Shown here in pieces: positions 7,840 to 17,754 of a DNA stretch of 64,000 bases. The translations under genes were made by a program, and so were the position numbers. Under the pieces are notes generated by a model that was given only the letters and a program-made list of their open reading frames with translations, made no database searches and was not told where the DNA came from. How positions within the stretch are numbered: position 1 is the first letter of the stretch; the number at the start of each line of letters is the position of its first letter. Origin of the DNA: an uncultured Actinomycetes bacterium (GTDB taxonomy: Bacteria; Actinomycetota; UBA4738; HRBIN12); NCBI GenBank assembly GCA_963704725.1, contig OY969934.1:64001-128000 (forward strand), given 5' to 3'.

Positions 7840-8513
7840 GCCCGGCCGCCGGACGGACCGGTCGGCGCGCCGGCGACAGCGGCACGCGCGAGGCGATCCT
7901 GGAGGCCGCCCGCGGCCGGTTCGCCGACCACGGCTACGACGGGGCCACGATCCGCGCCATCGCCGCCGACGCCGGCGTCGATCCCGCGCTGGTGCACCAC
8001 TTCTACGGGACGAAGGAGCGGCTGTTCGTCGCCGCGATGCGATTCCCCATCGTCCCCAGCGAGGTGATCGGCCGGGTTGCGGCCGTCGAGCGGGGGCACC
8101 TGGGCGAGACGATCGTGCGGACCGTGCTCGGCGTCTGGGAGCGGGAGGAGACGCGCGCGCAGTCCGTCGCGCTCTTGCGCTCGGCCGTCACGAACGAGCG
8201 GGCCGCCGACATGGTCCGCGGGTTCGTCACGAGCGCGATCCTCGGCTCGATCGCCACGGTCGCCCACGACGACGAGCCCGAGTACCGCGCCTCGCTGGTC
8301 GCGAGCCAGATCCTCGGCCTGGGGATCGCCCGCTACGTCGTCCGCCTGGAGCCGCTCGCGAGCGCCGGCGAGGAGGACCTCGTCGCGGCGATCGCGCCGA
8401 CCTTGCAGCGGTATCTGACCGGCAAGGTTCGGAGCTCCGCCGCCGGGCGGCGGCCGGCTCGGGCTCGGCCGGCCGGCCACGGCCGCGCCGAGTCCCGGCC
8501 GGCGACCCGCTAG
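7836..8513 (+). CDS. TetR family transcriptional regulator
   Basis: TREAILEAA..F...GY..ATIRAIAADAGVDPALVHHFYGTKE. Confidence 0.92.
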   Translation: MSPAAGRTGRRAGDSGTREAILEAARGRFADHGYDGATIRAIAADAGVDPALVHHFYGTKERLFVAAMRFPIVPSEVIGRVAAVERGHLGETIVRTVLGVWEREETRAQSVALLRSAVTNERAADMVRGFVTSAILGSIATVAHDDEPEYRASLVASQILGLGIARYVVRLEPLASAGEEDLVAAIAPTLQRYLTGKVRSSAAGRRPARARPAGHGRAESRPATR

Positions 8514-9693
8514 ACCGACCGCAGCGCCTCCGTGGGCGACAGGCGGGCCGCCCGCCAGGCCGGGTACAGACCCGCGACCGCCCCGATCACGAGCGCCGCG
8601 GCGACGCCCGCCCCGAGCCCGGCGACGGGGACCACCACCGACCAGTCCCGGGTGCCGGCGTAGACCGCCGTCACCCCGGCCCCGAGCGCCGCCCCCGCCA
8701 GGCCTCCCACGGCCGACAGGATCAGCGACTCCGTCAGGAACTGCGCCCACACGTGGCGCTTCGTCGCGCCGAGCGCCCGTCGCAGACCGATCTCCTGGCG
8801 CCGCTCGAGGACCCCGATGACCATCACGTTCGCGATGCCCACCCCGCCCACGAGGAGCGCCACCGCGCCGAGACCGAGAAGGAGCGACGTGAACGCGTCG
8901 TCGGCCGCCGCCCGCGCCTCGAGCGCGTCGGAGGGCCGGGCCACCGAGACCTCCTCCGGGCTCTCGGGGTTCACCGTGGACGCCAGCACGCCGCGGACGG
9001 ACTCGACGTCCTCGGGATCGGCCCGGACGTAGATCTGGCTCGCGCTCTCGTCCGCGTCGAACAGTCGCTCGGCGGCGGGCCGGCCGATGATGGCGCTGCG
9101 GTCGAGGTCGGGCGAGAGCGGCAGCGCCTCGAGGATGCCGACGACCGTGAACCACCGGTCGCCGACCCACACGGCCACCCCCGTCCGCGTGATGCCGAGC
9201 CGTTCGGCCGCGACGCTCCCCAACACGACCGCGGGGTATCGCGCCGTGGCCTCGTTGAGGAACGCGCCCTCGGCCACCGTACCGCTCAACGTGTCGAGCA
9301 GGTCGACGTCGGCCGCCACCACCGAGAGGCCGTTCGTCTCGGTCTCGGGGACGGCGTCGGACCGGTAGACGTTCGCGCTCACGCTCGTCGTCCCACTCGC
9401 CGCCTGGACCGGGCCGATCCGCCGCACCATCTCCTCGGAGGGCTCGGGCAGGCTCGAGCTCTCGCCGAACACGGAGTTGCCCGCGCTCACGGTGAGCAGG
9501 TTCGTGCCGAGCTCATCGAGCTGGGCCAGCAGGTCCGCCCGGCTCGAGTCGCTGATGCCCAGGACCGCCACCATCGACGCGATCCCGATCGCGATGCCGA
9601 GCGCCGACAGCGCGGCCCGGAGCCGGCGCGTGCGGAGCCCCACCGCTCCCACGCGGAACAGGTCGGCCAGCGACAGCGTGGTCGAGGCCGCGC

Positions 9694-9697
<4 letters not shown>
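8510..9697 (-). CDS. MacB/FtsX-like ABC transporter permease
   Basis: RLRAALSALGIAIG, VGGVGIANVM, ERRQEIGLRRALGA, GLYPAWRAARL. Confidence 0.92.
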
Positions 9698-10409
<712 letters not shown>

Positions 10410-10413
<4 letters not shown>

Positions 10414-11477
10414 GAGGCGGTCACCACCTCGAGGCCCTCCGAGACGCCATCGCCGGTCACCTCGACGAACCCGTCAGCGAAGTCGCCGGTGTCGACGGCG
10501 ACGAGGTGCGTCGCACCGCCGCCGTCCACGACCTCGAGCGCGAACCCGCCCTCGGCCAGCGCGAGGAGCCCCTCGACCGGGACGGCCAGCACGCCCTGGG
10601 CCCGGGAGGTCTCGACGTCGACGTCCACGGGAGCTTCGTCGAGGTCGGTGTCGACGTCGCCCGCGAGGCGGATCGTCACCTCGACGGTCGGATCCGCCGT
10701 GGGATCGTCAGGGTTGGTCTCCGCGACGCGCGAGACGAACGACACGCGTCCGCCGATCCGCTGGCCGCTCGGCAGCTCGACCCGGACCCGATCCCCCTTG
10801 GCGACGAGGTCCTGATCGGTGGCATCGAGGTCGAGCGTCACGACGCGCTCGAGGGACGACGTCGTCGCGACCTGGACGGCGGCCGCCACGCCCTGGCCGA
10901 TCTCGAGCGTGTGCGACCCCATGCGGCGGGCGGTGGGGAAGAACGCCACGTCTCCGAGCTCGACCACACCGGTCCGGTCCAGCCCGAGATCCTCCTGCCA
11001 GTCGCGGACGGCCTCGGCCGTGTCCGAGTCGAACTCGCCCGTCACCTCGAGGTCGCCGCCATCGTCGAACCCCAACGCGAGCAGGTTGCGCTGGAGCTGT
11101 CGGACGTCGAGCCCTTCATCGCCGGACGACAGCGCCCGGTACGCCGGCATCTCGCCGATCATCAGCACCACCGGCCGGTCGTCCACCTCGTACAGGACGT
11201 CCCCCCGGCGGAGCTCGGCGCCCTCCTCGGCGATCCACGTGAGGGTTCCCGAGCGCCCGGCGGTCAGGGCTCGCTCGTCCGCGTACCCGAGCGACCCGTC
11301 GAACGTCTCGCGCTCGACGAGATCGCGCCGCTCCACCGCGGCGGTCGCGAGGTCGTTGGAGTCCTCGGCGGCCGCCGCCTGGCTCGAACCGTCGCCGGAG
11401 AAGGCGAACCACCCGACGGCGCCGGCGGCCATCACCGCCACCGCGCCGGCGGCCAGCCACCGCTTAGTTGCCGTCAT
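10410..11477 (-). CDS. periplasmic adaptor (MacA-like) with peptidoglycan-binding domain
   Basis: N-terminal anchor; biotinyl-lipoyl-like segment; PG_binding_1-like G.DVRQLQRNLLALG...F...TAEAVRDWQ. Confidence 0.85.
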
Positions 11478-12069
11478 CGCCGTTCACCACCCTCTGGCCG
11501 CCGCCGGGAAGGACGTCGTCGAGGATCGGGCGGCACGCCTCGTCGGCCACCTGGAAGTCCGAATCCTGCGGATCGATGCCGTCGCCGCCCTGCTGGATGA
11601 ATCCGCCGTTGCCCGAGAAGTCCGGGTCGGGCATGTCGATCCCGTGATCGCGCATGCACTGCGCGTACTCGACCATCGCGTCCTGGAAGGCGGCCTGGTC
11701 CTCAGGCGAGATCTGCCCCGGCCCCTCGCCCCGCGGCAGCAGCTCCTGGCACGCGTCCATCGCGTCCGCGATCTGCTCGCGGTCCGCGTCGCTGGGCGGC
11801 CCCCCGCCGCCGCCGCCGACGCCGATCGTGATCCCGCCGTCCTCGCCGATCGTCGGGTCGGGGAAGTCCTCGATCCCGTTGTCGCGCATGCACTGGGCGA
11901 AGTCGGCGAGCGCGTCCTCCGGGTCGACCGACGGGCTCGCGCTCGGCGAGCTCGAGGGGTCCTCGCCTCCCTGCAGCGTCGCCACGCCGTCGCCCTGCTC
12001 GCTCCCGCACGCGACGAGCGCGAGCGACAGTGCCGCGACGAGCGCGAGCGTCTTCCACACCTTCCTCAT
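11464..12069 (-). CDS. lipoprotein with two CMR..G..PDP...AC repeats
   Basis: lipobox LVAC; repeats FAQCMRDNGIEDFPDP and YAQCMRDHGIDMPDP; SD GAGGAGG. Confidence 0.85.
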   Translation of the reverse strand: MRKVWKTLALVAALSLALVACGSEQGDGVATLQGGEDPSSSPSASPSVDPEDALADFAQCMRDNGIEDFPDPTIGEDGGITIGVGGGGGGPPSDADREQIADAMDACQELLPRGEGPGQISPEDQAAFQDAMVEYAQCMRDHGIDMPDPDFSGNGGFIQQGGDGIDPQDSDFQVADEACRPILDDVLPGGGQRVVNGDDGN

Positions 12070-12167: not shown

Positions 12168-13499
12168 TCAGGGGGGAGGCGGGAGCTCCGTGCCCGAGGC
12201 GGGAAGCTCGACCCGGACGATCGCCCCACCGTCGTCGGCGTTCGTCGCGAAGACCCGGCCGCCGTGTGACTCGACGACCTGTCGCACGATCGCCAGCCCG
12301 AGCCCGGAGCCGGGCTTGGAGCGCGCCGCGGTGGATCGGTAGAACCGATCGAACACGTGCGGCAGGTCCTCGCGCGGGAACCCCGAGCCGTGGTCACGAA
12401 CGGTGAGCACGCCGTCGCGCACCGCGACCTCGATCACCCCGTCCGGTGGACTCCACTTCTCCGCGTTGTCGAGCAGGTTCCGCGCGGCTCGATCGATCCG
12501 GGAGGCGTCCCCGACCACCACACAGGGGTCCAGGTCGGAGACGACCCGCACGTCGCGGACGCGACGCTCGAACGCCCGCACCGCCCCCGCCACCACCCGG
12601 TCGAGCCGGACGTCCCCGAGCACGGCCGGTTGCGCGCCGTCGCGTGCGAGCTCGACGAGGTCGTTCACGGTCGTGGTCAGCTCCTCGAGCTGGTCCGTGA
12701 GATCACGGAGCAGCCGCTCGCGCTCGGCCGGCCCGAGCTCGGCGCCGCTGGCCAGCACGTCGATGTTCGTCCGGATGCTCGTGATCGGCGTGCGAAGCTC
12801 GTGCGACGCGTCGGCCACGAGCTGCTTCTGCGCGCCCACCGACGCCTCCAGCGCCGCCAGCATCCCGTTGAAGGTCGTGGCGAGGCGGCCGATCTCGTCG
12901 TCCCCGGCCGGCGGCGCGTCGATCCGGTGCGAGAGGTCGCCCGTCTCGGTGACCCGCTCCGCCGCCTCGGTCAGCCGCCGGACGGGACCGACCGCCGCAG
13001 CCGAGACCCCACCGCCCAGAGCGACCGCAAGGGCGACTCCCCCGCCGGCCACCACGAGGAGGATGAGCGCGAGCCGACGGAGGGACCGGTCGACGTCGGT
13101 GAGCGGAGCGGCAAGCGTGAGCGTGAATCCGCCGATGCCCTCCGTGTACACGCGGTAGTGAATCCCCGAGACGTCCTGGTCGTTCATCGTGGGGGGGCCG
13201 GGCGAGGCGGCCGGGAACTCCGGCCCGCCGCCGACGCGGATCACGGCACCCCGCGGCGTCTCCACCTGCATGTAGAAGACGCGGTCGCCGGCGAGCGGCG
13301 CCGGCACCGAGACCGATCCGCCGACCACCTGCGGCAGCGGCGCGCGTTGGTGGATGAGGTCCGCTCGCGCCCGGAGCTCGTCATCGACCTCGCCCCGGAG
13401 CTGCGCCCGGACGACGAACCACGATGCGAGGGAGGCCAGCACGACCGCGACGGCGACGGCCGCGGCGGCCGACACCGTGAGCCGGCGGCGGAAGGTCAC
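12168..13499 (-). CDS. mprB: sensor histidine kinase, MprB-like
   Basis: 2 [40 protein letters not shown]; coupled to the mprA-like gene. Confidence 0.85.
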
Positions 13500-14176
13500 G
13501 GCGCCTCCTTCATCACGTAGCCGACCCCCCGGACGGTGTGGATCAGGCGCGGCTCTCCGTTCGCCTCCGTCTTGCGCCGCAGGTACCCCACGTACACCTC
13601 GAGCGCGTTCGACGTCGGCCCGAAGTCGTAGCCCCACACGCGATCGAAGATCACCTCTCGCGTGAGCACCCGGCGCGGGTTGAGGAGGAAGAGCTCCAGG
13701 AGCAGGTACTCGGTCCTCGTGAGGTCGATCGCCCGGTCGTCGCGACGGACCTCGTGGGTCACCGGATCCAGCGTGAGCCCGGCGAACACGAGCGGCTTCT
13801 CGTCGGCGTTGGGCACCGTGCGCCGGAGCAGGGCGCGGATCCTCGCCAGCAGCTCCTCCAGGGCGAACGGCTTGACCAGGTAGTCGTCGGCCCCGGCGTC
13901 GAGGCCCTCCACGCGGTCGCCGACCGCGTCGCGGGCGGTGAGCATGAGCACCGGCGTCCGATCGCCCGAGGCGCGGAGCTCACGGCAGGCCCCGAGACCG
14001 TCGAGCCGCGGCATCAAGATGTCGAGCACGACGACGTCGGGCGCGTCGGCCGCCATGCGTTCGAGCCCGTCGCGCCCGTCGACCGCGGTCGTCACGCCGT
14101 ACCCGTTGGAGCGGAGCGCGCGCTCGAGCGCATCGCGCACGGCCGGCTCGTCGTCGACGACCAGCACCTTCATCAC
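13496..14176 (-). CDS. mprA: OmpR-family response regulator, MprA-like
   Basis: receiver domain plus [30 protein letters not shown], characteristic of MprA. Confidence 0.88.
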
Positions 14177-14289: not shown

Positions 14290-15126
14290 CTACAGGGACG
14301 ACTCCGCCGTGTCGGTGGTCGAGCGGTCGAAGTGCCCGCCGAACATCCCGCGGCCCGGACCGCCCGGCATGGGGGGGAAGGGGAACGGCGCGAGATCTCC
14401 GTTCACGATCGCGCCCGCCTGGTCGTGGAGGTCCGCCGCGCGCTCGTCGGCCTCGTCGCTAGTGATCCACCCGTTCCGGGTGGCCGCGTCGAGCCGGTCC
14501 TGGAGCGCGCCGACGATCGCGTCGACCACGTCCGACACCGCGACCCCGTGGTCCTCGGCGACCTCGGCCACCGTCGCGCCGCTCGCGACCTCCGACAGGA
14601 GCTCGGCCGGCCTGATGCCGATCGCGTCGGCGGCCGCGGCGAGGGGCCCGTCGGCGAACCCCCACAGGCCGGGATGACCGACGATCGGCATCCGGACGTC
14701 GGGCATCGGGAGGTCGCCGTTCACGAGATCGGTCACGCGCTGCTCGAGATCGGCCGCGCGCTCGTCCGCCTCCTGTTGGCTGAGCACGCCGTCCTGCACG
14801 AGCCGGTCCAGCCGGGCGCGCTCGTCCGCCACGATCGCGTCGACCACGTCGGCGGGATCGATGCCGTGCGCCTCCGCCACGTCGGCGATCGTGCGACCGT
14901 CGCGGAGGGCCGAAACGAGGGTGGCCGGCTCGACGCCGATGGCGTCCGCGGCGGCCGCGAGCGGCCCGTCCCCGAGGAAGCGGTCGCAGATGGCCGTCAC
15001 CGGCCCGTCGCCAGCCGGGGATGCGGCCAGCCCGAGCCCCGGGGTGAAGACGACGGCGCCGACGACCATGCCCACGGTCACCGAGCCCGCCACCATCCCC
15101 GCCATCACCAGCTTCCGACCGGCCAT
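14290..15126 (-). CDS. secreted/anchored helical protein with two ~90-aa internal repeats
   Basis: signal-like N-terminus; [11 protein letters not shown]...DVVDAIV...EADERAADL...VNGDL twice; SD AAGGAG. Confidence 0.8.
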
Positions 15127-15166
15127 CGAGGGCTCCTTCCTCCGGTGGATCGATCCGTTCACACCC

Positions 15167-15283
15167 AGGGTCCCCCCGACGTGTGAGGAGAGCCTGAGAG
15201 GGGGGTGAAGGTTCGCTGACCGCCTCACTCACAGCGGACGCCCAGGGTCCTCCTCGTGCGCTCCCAGCTCCGGGTGGTGCCAT
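15167..15283. promoter_or_regulatory. divergent pair of MprA-type box arrays
   Basis: minus strand hexamers at 15216/15205/15194/15183, then 10 nt and GACCCT; plus strand TCACAG/GCCCAG/TCCTCG/TCCCAG at 15229/15240/15251/15262, then 10 nt and TGCCAT. Confidence 0.55.
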
Positions 15284-15320
15284 CGGTCGAGAGACGGAGC
15301 CGACGACGGAGGACCACGAG

Positions 15321-15665
15321 ATGAACGACCGATCGACGAGCATGCCCGGTGGGGCGACCGCCCTCCGGCTGCCCCCGCCCCCGAGGCCCGCGAACCCCGC
15401 ACCACGGCGGCGACCCCGGCGGCGACACCCCGCGGCGCGCTCGAGGCTCGTCACCGGCGCGATCAGCGCTCTGGCGTTCCTCGGACTCGGCGGCGCCATG
15501 GCCGCGAACGCCGTCCCGAGCGGGACCACGAGTCAGGAGCGGGCCGGCGGAGCGGACGCCGCGACCGGCGAAACCACGGTCTCGTCCCAGGATCTGCTGA
15601 CGGGAGCTCAGCCCGCGGCTCCCGTCTTCGGCCAGACACCGACGAGCACCAGCGGTGGCAGCTGA
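15321..15665 (+). CDS. small membrane-anchored protein ending TSTSGGS (candidate ApbE substrate)
   Basis: SD GGAGG; Arg-rich stretch, one TM, Ser/Thr-rich tail; overlaps apbE start. Confidence 0.75.
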   Translation: MNDRSTSMPGGATALRLPPPPRPANPAPRRRPRRRHPAARSRLVTGAISALAFLGLGGAMAANAVPSGTTSQERAGGADAATGETTVSSQDLLTGAQPAAPVFGQTPTSTSGGS

Positions 15666-16581
15666 GCGCCGCTTCCGCGCGATGGGCACCGACGTCCACG
15701 TCGTGGTCGTGGGCGGCGCTGCGTCGCTCGGGGATCGGGCGGTCGGGCACATCGAGCGACTGGAGGAGCTGTGGAGCCGGTTCCGCCCCACCAGCGAGGT
15801 GAGCCGTCTGAACGCGATGGCCGGCCGGCCGGTGACCGTCTCGAGCGAGACCCTGACCCTGGTGATGCGAGCGCTCGAGGGCGCCCGCATCACGGCCGGC
15901 CGGTTCGACCCCACGGTCCTGGGGGCGGTCATCCGCGCCGGCTACGACCGCTCCTTCGAGCTGCTGGACGACGCCTCGCCGCCCGGCACCTCGCTCCTCG
16001 AGCTGGGGTGGGAGGCGATCCTCGTCGACGAGCGCGCCTCGACCGTCACGGTGCCACGGGGAGTCGGCTTCGACCCCGGGGGCATCGGCAAGGGCTACGC
16101 CGCCGACCTCGTCGTCGACGAGCTGCTCGCGGAGGGCGCGGCCGGCGCCTGCGTGAACGTCGGTGGTGACCTGCGGGCGGAGGGCGCCACCGAGGACGGG
16201 GAACCCTGGGCGTTCGCCATCGATCCCGAGCGCTCCGGGAACGAGATCGCCCTCGTGGGGATGTACGGGGGCGCGGTGGCGACGAGCACCCGGACCCGCC
16301 GGACGCTCGGCCCGGCCGCCGAGGGGCGGCACCACCTGATCGACCCGTCGACCGGAGATCCCGCGGCCGCGGGCGTCCGGTCCGCCAGCGTGGTTGCGGG
16401 TCGGGGGTGGCAGGCGGAGGTCGCCGCGAAGGCCGCGTTCGTGTCCGGCGTCAAGGACGGGACGGCGCTCCTGCACGCCTTCGGCCTGGACGGGGTGCTC
16501 GTGGACGACGACGGACGCCTGCACCCGACACCCGGCCTCGCCCGGTTCACCGGACCGCGGACCGTGGGAGCAACGCCGTGA
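15655..16581 (+). CDS. apbE: FAD:protein FMN transferase
   Basis: FRAMGT, WSRFRPTSEVSRLN, FDPTV, DPGGIGKGYAAD, GGDLR, VATS, HHLIDP. Confidence 0.93.
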   Translation: MAAERRFRAMGTDVHVVVVGGAASLGDRAVGHIERLEELWSRFRPTSEVSRLNAMAGRPVTVSSETLTLVMRALEGARITAGRFDPTVLGAVIRAGYDRSFELLDDASPPGTSLLELGWEAILVDERASTVTVPRGVGFDPGGIGKGYAADLVVDELLAEGAAGACVNVGGDLRAEGATEDGEPWAFAIDPERSGNEIALVGMYGGAVATSTRTRRTLGPAAEGRHHLIDPSTGDPAAAGVRSASVVAGRGWQAEVAAKAAFVSGVKDGTALLHAFGLDGVLVDDDGRLHPTPGLARFTGPRTVGATP

Positions 16582-17147
16582 GCGGGCAGCTGCTCTGGTA
16601 CTCGGCCCGGGCGAGCGGCATCGTCGCCTGGTCGCTCGCCGCCGGCTCGGTGCTGTGGGGGCTCGTCCTGTCGACCGACGTGATGCGCCGCCGGTCCCGT
16701 CCCGGGTGGGTGCTCGACCTCCACCGGTTCCTGGGCGGTGCGGCCATGTCGTTCACCGGCCTGCACGTCCTGTCGGTCCTGCTCGACGGGTACGTCCACT
16801 TCGGTCTGGTGAACGTGCTCGTCCCGTTCACGGGCTCCTGGCACCCGGTCGCCGTGGCCTGGGGCATCGTGGGCTTCTACGCCCTGCTCGCGGTGGAGCT
16901 CACCTCGCTCGCCCGGCGTCACGTGCCGCACCGCCTGTGGCGGCGGGTCCACTTCGGCGGCTTCGCGGTGTTCGCCGCGACGACGGCCCACGCGCTCACG
17001 GTCGGCACCGACCGGGGGGTGCACGCCTACGTCCTGGTCGTGCTGGCGGTCACGACGGTGGCGGCCGCCATGACCGCGGCCCGCGTGGCGCGACGGCGGT
17101 CTCGCCGCCGGGTCCCGGCCGCGGTGCTCGGCACGCGTCCGGTCTAG
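16578..17147 (+). CDS. ferric-reductase-like (MsrQ-type) di-heme membrane cytochrome b
   Basis: WYSARASG; four TM His (DLHRF, GLHVL, WRRVHF, TAHAL); no FAD/NAD domain; GTGA overlap. Confidence 0.85.
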   Translation: MSGQLLWYSARASGIVAWSLAAGSVLWGLVLSTDVMRRRSRPGWVLDLHRFLGGAAMSFTGLHVLSVLLDGYVHFGLVNVLVPFTGSWHPVAVAWGIVGFYALLAVELTSLARRHVPHRLWRRVHFGGFAVFAATTAHALTVGTDRGVHAYVLVVLAVTTVAAAMTAARVARRRSRRRVPAAVLGTRPV

Positions 17148-17181
17148 CATTCGCGACGACCGCCACACGAAGGAGCCTCCC

Positions 17182-17754
17182 ATGGCCGAGTTCCATGTCC
17201 TGTCCGACGGTTACCTCTCCGACCACGACGACCGCGTGGGCTCGACGGTGAGCTTCGTCCGCGACGGCGAAGCGCTCGTGGTCGTCGATCCGGGCCTGGT
17301 GGCCTCGCGTCGCTCGATCCTCGATCCGCTCGCCGCCCTCGGGGTGGCGCCCGAGGCGATCACCGACGTCGTGATCTCCCACCACCATCCCGACCACACG
17401 CTGAACGTCGCGCTGTTCCCGAACGCGCGTCTGCACGACCACTGGGCGTGGTATCGCGACGATCTGTGGACGTCGCGACCGGCCGAGGGGTTCGAGATCT
17501 CCGGCGGCGTCCGGCTGATCGAGACGCCCGGCCACACCCCGCAGGACATCTCGACGCTCGTCGACACGGACGAGGGCCTCGTCGTCGCGACGCACCTGTG
17601 GTGGACGGCGACCGGCCCGGAGGAGGACCCCTACGCGCCCGACCCGGCTCTGGTCCACGAGAACCGGGCCCGGGTGCTCGCGCTCCCCGGCCTCGTCCGC
17701 ATCGTGCCGGGACACGGGCCGAGCTTCGTCCCCTCCGGGGACACGCCGGGCTGA
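17182..17754 (+). CDS. MBL-fold metallo-hydrolase
   Basis: VDPG, SHHHPDH, TPGHT, IVPGHG. Confidence 0.9.
   Translation: MAEFHVLSDGYLSDHDDRVGSTVSFVRDGEALVVVDPGLVASRRSILDPLAALGVAPEAITDVVISHHHPDHTLNVALFPNARLHDHWAWYRDDLWTSRPAEGFEISGGVRLIETPGHTPQDISTLVDTDEGLVVATHLWWTATGPEEDPYAPDPALVHENRARVLALPGLVRIVPGHGPSFVPSGDTPG

Follow-up and report, generated by a model that had tools for sequence, protein, structure and literature searches.

A three-gene flavinylation module in which a bare Ser-Gly-Gly-Ser end may be the site of flavin attachment

What does a flavin transferase modify when none of its described substrates is found in the genome? The question is raised by a locus in a 64,000-nucleotide stretch of DNA (the window; positions 64,001 to 128,000 of contig OY969934.1, assembly GCA_963704725.1) from an uncultured Actinomycetes bacterium. 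There, three overlapping genes encode a protein of 114 residues which ends ...TPTSTSGGS (the tail protein), an ApbE, i.e. an FAD:protein FMN transferase (FAD, flavin adenine dinucleotide; FMN, flavin mononucleotide), and a small cytochrome b. The extracts of the literature used here place the flavin of described ApbE substrates in a folded domain (FMN_bind, DUF2271, DUF3570, NqrB/RnfD, Flavodoxin_4 or FMN_red). They also state that genomes with an orphan apbE remain and that unidentified substrates must exist (Meheust et al., 2021, PMC8238504). We consider it fairly probable, judging from sequence comparisons and models, that FMN is attached to the last Ser of the tail protein and that this residue, outside the cell, receives electrons from the cytochrome. 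The three genes probably constitute a minimal module for electron transfer across the membrane, with a bare 'natural flavin tag' instead of the usual FMN-binding domain.

An initial annotation of the stretch had described an overlapping three-gene set, and all of its elements were recovered, on the plus strand (Table 1). The GTG start of apbE lies 11 nucleotides (nt) inside the tail gene and the cytochrome gene is joined to apbE by a GTGA overlap; translation of the tail gene is coupled to that of a leaderless ApbE and of a di-haem cytochrome. The G+C content of the window is about 73%. At third codon positions of the tail gene it is 0.84, the highest value among the frames being that of the annotated one. 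A scan of positions 15100-17400 returned neither promoters nor terminators. Among sequencing runs none of RNA was listed for the sequence, and one DNA run contained a small share (0.07) of the sampled words. The tail protein has the Arg-rich N-terminus, the single putative transmembrane segment and the flexible Ser/Thr/Gly linker that had been described. In the AlphaFold2 (AF2) model residues 37-62 form the sole helix and the remainder is coil (mean predicted local distance difference test score, pLDDT, 66.8; residues 76-92 below 50). Searches of Pfam and NCBIfam gave no match, and the ESM Atlas matches were unnamed 'hypothetical protein' clusters of Actinomycetota only (scores 0.92-0.94). Homologues are listed as P0002 and P0003, and six relatives are syntenic with apbE and the cytochrome gene. 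When 61 relatives were queried with the tail protein, 22 genomes had a match at E ≤ 0.01. Twenty loci were fetched from these matches; apbE adjoined the match in L002-L007 only, the others being low-complexity noise. Longer or fused forms of the tail protein were not found in the search, which is weak evidence.

How much of this protein is conserved? In an alignment of 18 sequences A38, R42 and S114 are invariant, and R34 and G113 are present in at least 90%. Conservation in the tail protein is confined to three parts: an Arg-rich juxtamembrane motif, the helix and the end T-[T/S]-[S/T]-x-[G/A]-S-COOH. The consensus of the juxtamembrane motif in the 18 relatives, immediately ahead of the helix, is R-R-(P)-H-[P/A]-A-x-R-x-R, and RR(P)H[PA]A.R.R precedes the helix in most Actinomycetota tail proteins. 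The linker is rich in Ser, Thr, Gly, Ala and Pro, and its length varies across the relatives. Tail proteins of Chloroflexota (L070, L080, L087, L090, L098 and others) have a distinct anchor motif, [A/V]WKS[G/A]LL, before the helix and a longer conserved end, ...P(A/T)FR(R/Q)P[I/V]TR[S/T]RGS-stop or ...TRSS(R)-stop.

The initial annotation had raised the possibility that homologues beside apbE keep a terminal [S/T]G[G/A]S. This was largely borne out in a slightly wider form. [S/T]-x-[G/A]-S-stop ended 49 of 76 distinct tails, i.e. of the distinct anchored open reading frames (ORFs) which end beside apbE homologues, duplicates removed; a relaxed pattern was matched by 59. As a background, the strict pattern ended 108 (0.6%) and the relaxed one 179 (1.0%) of 17,721 ORFs of the host genome, taken from stop to stop with at least 100 residues. 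The frequency of the terminal motif beside apbE is more than chance. Counting the last residue as position 0, the 76 tails had Ser at 0 in 53 cases and Ser or Thr at -3 in 57. Position -1 was Gly in 43, Ala in 11 and Ser in 8; position -2 was Gly in 25, His in 14 and Arg in 12. The window end, S111-G-G-S114, fits the canonical ApbE motif D-x-x-[S/T]-G-A-[S/T] at -3 and in the target Ser at position 0. It has Gly at -2 and at -1, the latter in place of the canonical Ala, and Thr in place of Asp at -6. A canonical [S/T]GA[S/T] was present in only three of the 76 tails. L065 and L066 end SGAS-stop, L094 ends TGAS-stop and L060 carries SGAT between two Cys; therefore the tail family grades into the known motif. 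In five loci (L060, L061, L085, L096 and L125) the motif is located in a short Cys-flanked C-terminal loop (CTTPSGATVQC, C[T/S]GSKC[H/P], SCGTHPC). These sequences might be read as flavinylation loops closed by a disulfide.

The association was examined locus by locus. A first set consisted of 80 public loci found with ApbE, one of which, L058, is from a complete Aquihabitans genome. Five of them end too early upstream, and in the other 75 a tail ORF was sought at -90 to +60 nt from the apbE start. Thirty-four ended [ST].[GA]S-stop, eight ..SS or ..SSR, four had a Cys-flanked [ST]G[AS]x and 29 had none of these. Where a cytochrome lies downstream and enough upstream sequence is available, a tail ORF directly preceded apbE in 43 of 53 loci; of the remaining ten, six have a tail ORF elsewhere in the cluster and four have none. 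Among loci without a detected cytochrome a tail ORF was present in 2 of 17, and most of the others belong to an apbE subclade which follows a histidine kinase. A second sample comprised 29 loci of the actinobacterial class, all with a cytochrome downstream. Here 22 tails were strict, two ended TGGSHP, three ended THAG, GGTG or in a Cys loop, one locus had none and one was cut. Tail counts include loci from unpublished genomes (L006 and L120 of G041, L109 of G073), and G113 is part of the class-sample tallies; no conclusion rests on G041, G073 or G113.

Gene order and codon usage speak to the level of selection. The seven closest loci are uniform: each tail ORF has S-x-[G/A]-S-stop as its end and overlaps apbE by 11 nt, [A/G]TG NNA GCT GA. 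Over the wider set the stops of strict tails are located at 22 different offsets from the apbE start, and the last Ser codon of 52 distinct strict tails was AGC in 30, TCG in 16, TCC in five and TCT in one. Given the mixed Ser codon families and the 22 offsets, the terminal Ser is therefore selected at the protein level. In several Chloroflexota clusters and in one Acidimicrobiaceae the tail gene is positioned after the cytochrome gene or between apbE and the cytochrome gene. The tail gene is genuine, and what is conserved is its protein sequence.

By family and motif likeness the second gene product is a predicted FAD:protein FMN transferase. The PF02424 match covers residues 10-275 with 184 bits (cut-off 25.6). 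It aligned with the solved FMN transferases 1vrm, 4xdt and 6nxi (E 1.1e-27, 5.7e-22 and 1.8e-20), and its segments GGIGKGYA and HHLIDPSTG match the template segments GGI.KG and HH(I/L)IDP..G. The claim that this ApbE has no obvious signal peptide held. There is an in-frame stop 23 codons upstream, and a signal peptide is impossible because the GTG, the first start after this stop, leaves nine residues before the Pfam match. Related loci are likewise leaderless. An N-terminal signal or lipoprotein peptide is typical of most bacterial ApbEs, yet not strictly defining. A His of the HHLIDPSTG segment was matched by eye to His257 of V. cholerae ApbE, which is named as the general base (PMC12052999). 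The segment ATSGDYER or TSGAYER of solved ApbEs reads ATSTRTRR in the window and ATS[S/T]xx[R/K]R.W in most tail-associated ApbEs (L027-L106). ApbEs of Chloroflexota which are paired with ..SS(R) tails keep ATSG.DYRRW. It is speculation that the changed ATSG-D-Y-E-R segment is related to the free carboxyl end of the substrate. According to the published excerpts, ApbE modifies a 12-residue unstructured tag at either end of a protein (PMC9400968). Within the canonical motif, replacement of Asp by Ala is described to matter little, whereas about 50% flavinylation is left when Gly is changed to Ala or Ala to Val; cytosolic ApbEs are known (PMC12052999). A separate apbE subclade (L041, L042, L043, L044, L052, L054, L055 and L081), the N-terminus of which resembles ...ERIVEVMGTTAHV, comes after response-regulator and histidine-kinase genes of the same orientation. 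Neither a cytochrome homologue nor a tail ORF was detected in the flanks fetched for this subclade.

Is another substrate available to the window ApbE? FMN_bind proteins, which the initial annotation had stated to be lacking in the window, were absent there and from the whole host genome (3.45 Mb, a single contig). Nor did a canonical substrate elsewhere, which would have offered a different account of the ApbE, turn up: the genome had no match to FMN_bind, DUF2271, NqrB/RnfD, Flavodoxin_4 or FMN_red. DUF3570 was also without a match, which has little weight because its control search was silent in every control genome. The cytochrome itself was tried as an ApbE substrate and rejected, as its FTGS is not conserved and the paralogue has MSTT. 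Two apbE genes are present in the host genome, and a gene for a GGS-ended protein comes before each of them. The second trio is located at G000:C1:2670453-2673113 (L022:380-3113). Its tail protein is anchored, has a Pro/Ala/Gly-rich linker and ends ...PPPPPPTTTGGS-stop (TTTGGS). A leaderless ApbE of 322 residues follows via a 4-nt GTGA overlap, with TCG as the Ser codon, and a PF01794-positive cytochrome comes third. A third tail protein of 110 residues (C1:571617-571949, minus strand), a paralogue of that of the second trio, has PRRILRLWAWIAGGLAFL near its start and ends ...APAPAPAPATTGGS-stop (ATTGGS). Its gene is downstream of an ECF-sigma-like gene and has no adjoining apbE or cytochrome gene. 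Among 43 tail proteins there was no match to FMN_bind, nor to another credible Pfam family. In a sample of 121 genomes from the actinobacterial class FMN_bind (PF04205) was found in none, ApbE in 63 and the cytochrome in at least 64, a floor which reflects a stricter first look; all 63 ApbE genomes also carry the cytochrome.

The third gene had been described as a four-His cytochrome b without NAD(P)H domain. In agreement, H49, H63, H125 and H138 are invariant in 25 of 25 sequences, i.e. the window protein and the 24 homologues from whose alignment its start was set. The spacings are H-x13-H (H49/H63) and H-x12-H (H125/H138), with the pairs on helices 2 and 4 of the AF2 model. Two His pairs at such spacing are the signature of the ferric-reductase-domain superfamily (NOX, STEAP, MsrQ) and serve two b haems. 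The model (pLDDT 89.1) has five long helices, residues 2-32, 43-68, 90-111, 118-142 and 149-177. The six transmembrane helices which are described for the ferric-reductase-domain family (PMC8238504) are not reached, and what the model lacks seems to be the helix that would precede the first His-bearing one. A Foldseek search against the PDB listed STEAP4, STEAP2, STEAP1, SpNOX and the membrane domain of NOX5 at the top (E 2.3e-3 to 0.08, prob 1.00, TMq 0.5-0.62), none of them at E 0.001. Pfam, searched up to E 10, gave nothing but a chance DUF7190 match; the homologues L022, L056 and L066 pass PF01794 with 28.2-32.8 bits (cut-off 28). His alignment, AF2 model and Foldseek together place the window protein in the ferric-reductase-domain superfamily. 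Some relatives have a larger cytochrome. Fused NOX-like forms are encoded at L056:3406-5073, L057:956-2740 and L066:3403-5190. Pfam was run on L056 (titled Propionibacteriales) and L066 (titled Nocardioidaceae), and both have C-terminal FAD_binding_6, NAD_binding_1 and Fer2 domains. Therefore the C-terminus of the cytochrome is in the cytoplasm. L056 and L066 keep the tail protein and apbE upstream, with tails ending SRAS (L056) and QSGAS (L066); L057 is cut upstream.

On which side of the membrane is the tail? Its sequence features point to an extracellular C-terminus, because the Arg-rich segment precedes the helix (positive-inside rule) and because the hydrophobic segment has a lipobox-like end, L-T-G-C, in two homologues (L034 and L036) and many members have A-x-A after the helix. 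Because such an A-x-A site also follows the helix of the window protein, its tethering is uncertain; cleavage may be permitted there. With a leaderless ApbE and the tail outside, flavinylation would therefore precede export. TatC, a component of twin-arginine translocation (Tat), is present in the host genome; the initial annotation had offered, as a speculation, that the RR-rich N-terminus might co-export ApbE via Tat. The Tat consensus is S/T-R-R-x-F-L-K before a mildly hydrophobic region with A-x-A at its end, and the two tail paralogues in the genome carry SRRALRI and PRRILRL. The Sec channel can pass a small adduct. A complex of the cytochrome, two haems and tail residues 28-114 was predicted with a score of 0.49, compared with 0.00 for the best of three controls. 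The runs agreed in at least 72% of contacts, and the partner pLDDT was at least 54. Of 157 solved complexes and 215 mismatched pairs, 116 and 2, respectively, pass the mark of the tool; at scores ≤ 0.60 those which pass are only 18 of the 157 solved complexes and both mismatches. The custom alignments and the riding ligand are outside the calibration of the tool. With its one helix, of the right orientation, the tail protein could supply the sixth helix of the cytochrome.

We propose the following sequence of events. ApbE, in the cytoplasm where FAD is available, would put FMN on the hydroxyl of Ser114. The tail protein would insert with the N-terminus inside and the C-terminus outside, the flavinylated end crossing the membrane last, via Tat or Sec. 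Its helix would pack on the five-helix cytochrome, and the FMN, held by some 50 residues of linker as a leash, would take electrons from the outer haem. It could hand them to an extracytoplasmic acceptor encoded outside of the operon, perhaps to Fe(III) or another oxidant. The initial annotation had put forward the menaquinone pool as a possible source of the electrons; in some relatives the cytoplasmic donor would instead be NAD(P)H via the fused FAD/NAD/2Fe-2S domains. A stricter version, which we regard as rather improbable, puts the cofactor first and export last: the leaderless ApbE would load the last residue of the nascent single-pass protein, the unfolded C-terminus would then be threaded out, and the helix would be the missing sixth of a split cytochrome.

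Several points weigh against a flavinylated Ser114. The window tail departs from D-x-x-[S/T]-G-A-[S/T], with no Asp at -6, Gly for Ala at -1 and a -2 position that varies among the tails. The tested Flavin-tag has three residues after its Thr (PMC9400968), the window Ser none, and ApbE is said to prefer Thr over Ser (PMC12052999). Seventeen of the 76 neighbouring anchored ORFs do not have the motif, many of them histidine kinases before a different apbE subclade, and THAG, GGTG or a Cys loop forms the end of a few true members. The loci are related by kinship, and the tail counts overstate the number of independent observations. A cytoplasmic ApbE acting on an outside tail needs flavinylation before export, for which no precedent was found in the literature. 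The window protein has no clear twin-arginine motif; in RRRHPAARSR-LVTG...AMAANA the A-x-A is present, a clear RR-x-hydrophobic pair is not. Last, the cytochrome-tail complex prediction was graded 'weak support'.

These points lend some room to a different role. The tail protein could be a structural or assembly subunit, e.g. the sixth helix, with a Ser motif for processing, sorting or cell-wall contact, while ApbE acts elsewhere. In its favour, conservation of the helix and of the juxtamembrane motif equals that of the tail, five helices are seen in the cytochrome model, the complex score offers its weak support, and the tail is non-canonical at -1, -2 and -6. However, some members have canonical SGAS, TGAS or SGAT at the same position, and no other known family of ApbE substrates was found in the genome. 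The cytochrome has no conserved [S/T]GA[S/T]. In most loci apbE is translationally coupled to the tail gene, and the third, unlinked paralogue keeps TTGGS. We judge such a purely structural role to be unlikely. Alternatively, the tail might be flavinylated and stay in the cytoplasm. It would then act on the cytochrome as its entry flavin, the part which FAD plays in NOX or STEAP, and an export step would be dispensable. A leaderless ApbE, the precedent of cytosolic ApbEs (PMC12052999) and a minimal cytochrome without cytoplasmic reductase domain would fit. Yet the Arg-rich segment before the helix, by the positive-inside rule, and the lipobox-like or A-x-A ends of homologues put the C-terminus outside. 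Moreover, clusters with a complete FAD/NAD/2Fe-2S entry module for NAD(P)H retain the tail protein; therefore the tail is probably not a cytoplasmic entry flavin. A cytoplasmic location of the tail is very unlikely on these grounds.

The motif could also be no protein feature at all. The terminal GS-stop might be a by-product of the 11-nt overlap, in which xGT GGN AGC TGA is read over GTG GNA GCT GAG, or the ORF might be a frameshifted anchor of ApbE. The seven closest loci, all with the 11-nt overlap and the same A GCT GA core, would agree with the former, and an anchor followed by a linker is a design that would suit a tethered enzyme. Both readings are contradicted by the offsets, the codons, the gene orders and the overlap of the paralogue, and we rejected them as next to impossible. 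The motif is kept at 22 offsets, non-overlapping ones included, with both Ser codon families, and also where the tail gene follows the cytochrome gene or splits it from apbE. The in-genome paralogue has a 4-nt overlap and TCG for Ser. The absence of a fused form among longer proteins argues weakly against an anchor of ApbE; the in-frame stop 23 codons upstream of the apbE start also speaks against it.

If Ser114 is indeed flavinylated, the smallest natural redox protein module would consist of no more than an anchor, a flexible linker and a tail of four residues. ApbE would recognise a looser motif than the textbook one, [S/T]-x-[G/A]-S-COOH, and a class of actinobacteria with ApbE and a partner cytochrome and without FMN-binding domain would be explained. 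It would raise the question how a protein that is flavinylated in the cytoplasm crosses the membrane, and it would provide a natural, shorter C-terminal flavin tag for protein labelling. Should the cofactor also be attached before export, the flavin would sit on a disordered leash of 50-170 residues, long enough to enter or even cross the cell wall, and its potential would not be tuned by a binding pocket. This would be the redox counterpart of a swinging-arm prosthetic group without carrier domain, and most of the 'orphan' ApbE genomes among Acidimicrobiia and Chloroflexota would be accounted for.

The neighbourhood of the trio is summarised in Table 1. The divergent two-component pair (12168..14176) is possibly the regulator of the trio. 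The fetched flanks of the 80 related loci included a response-regulator homologue in 33 cases and one of the kinase in 23. The gene that separates the two-component system from the trio encodes a protein of 312 residues, the module of which reads ...AAADAIG..P..L......G.T.A.VAE.HG.... The two-component system may also control the envelope exporter encoded downstream of the kinase. Neither a terminal reductase nor a metal transporter is encoded beside the trio.

Table 1. Features of the locus and of its neighbourhood, in window coordinates.
Feature	Position	Strand	Basis or remark
201-residue protein, PG_binding_1 protein, ATP-binding cassette ATPase, MacB/FtsX-type permease	8510-12069	-	downstream of kinase
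HAMP/HisKA/HATPase histidine kinase	12168-13637 (ORF)	-	Pfam; divergent from trio
OmpR-type response regulator	13496-14176	-	Pfam; divergent from trio
312-residue protein, N-terminal hydrophobic segment, two tandem modules of ~100 residues	14290-15228	-	weak DUF433 and helix-turn-helix-like Pfam matches only
Shine-Dalgarno-like GGAGG	15308..15312	+	8 nt ahead of tail-protein ATG, read from sequence
Tail-protein gene, 114 residues	15321..15665	+	ORF; no known family
Juxtamembrane motif R33-R-R-H-P-A-A-R-S-R42	15417..15446	+	conserved in alignment; predicted cytoplasmic side
Hydrophobic segment L43-A62, then A62-N63-A64	15447..15512	+	AF2 helix, hydropathy scan of homologues; membrane anchor or cleavable signal peptide
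Tail S111-G-G-S114 and TGA stop	15651..15665	+	proposed FMN attachment site, Ser114
apbE, FAD:protein FMN transferase, 308 residues	15655..16581	+	PF02424, E 5.1e-54
ApbE segment ATSTRTRR, residues ~203-212	16261-16290	+	compared with solved ApbEs
Five-helix di-haem cytochrome b, ferric-reductase-domain fold, 189 residues	16578..17147	+	alignment, AF2, Foldseek

How does the trio compare with known systems? A domain-free tail as a substrate of ApbE was not found described in the literature searched, a search which did not extend to the cluster lists in supplementary file 1 of PMC8238504. The module is probably a variant of the MsrQ-like flavinylation systems. The MsrQ-like clusters of Actinobacteria (Meheust et al., 2021, PMC8238504) likewise have apbE beside a di-haem membrane protein of the ferric-reductase-domain type (there PF01794), and the same role is proposed for them, i.e. 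electron transfer across the membrane to a flavinylated acceptor. These clusters 'typically include' a gene for an FMN-binding domain (PMC8238504) and have signal-bearing components, whereas FMN_bind is absent from the present genome and from the 121 sampled ones. The window cytochrome also differs in being below the PF01794 threshold and in having five helices instead of six (PMC8238504).

An ApbE site on a disordered C-terminal stretch, as here, is reported for FMN_red proteins with an unstructured C-terminal extension (Huang et al., 2024, PMC11334425). There, the extension is described to fold back on the flavin-binding domain, cradling the FMN, and the proteins are mostly from Firmicutes (PMC11334425). 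In contrast, the window protein is without folded domain, its motif is formed by the very last residues and it is membrane-anchored. PplA of Listeria has folded FMN-binding domains. The PplA/FmnB pair shares with the trio a membrane-tethered surface flavoprotein, flavinylation by an ApbE-like enzyme and the delivery of electrons to outside acceptors in a single-membrane cell (PMC8238504, PMC9973259). According to the abstract, FmnB is extracytosolic and needs outward trafficking of flavin, whereas here the enzyme is leaderless and the carrier domain-free. The nearest mechanistic precedent is the engineered Flavin-tag GVDGLSGATLTS of the Fraaije group (PMC9400968; PMC12052999), a short unstructured terminal peptide reported to suffice for attachment of FMN by ApbE. 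The tag copies D-x-x-[S/T]-G-A-[S/T] and has residues after the target Thr (PMC9400968), whereas the natural tails have no Asp, mostly Gly at -1, and end at the Ser.

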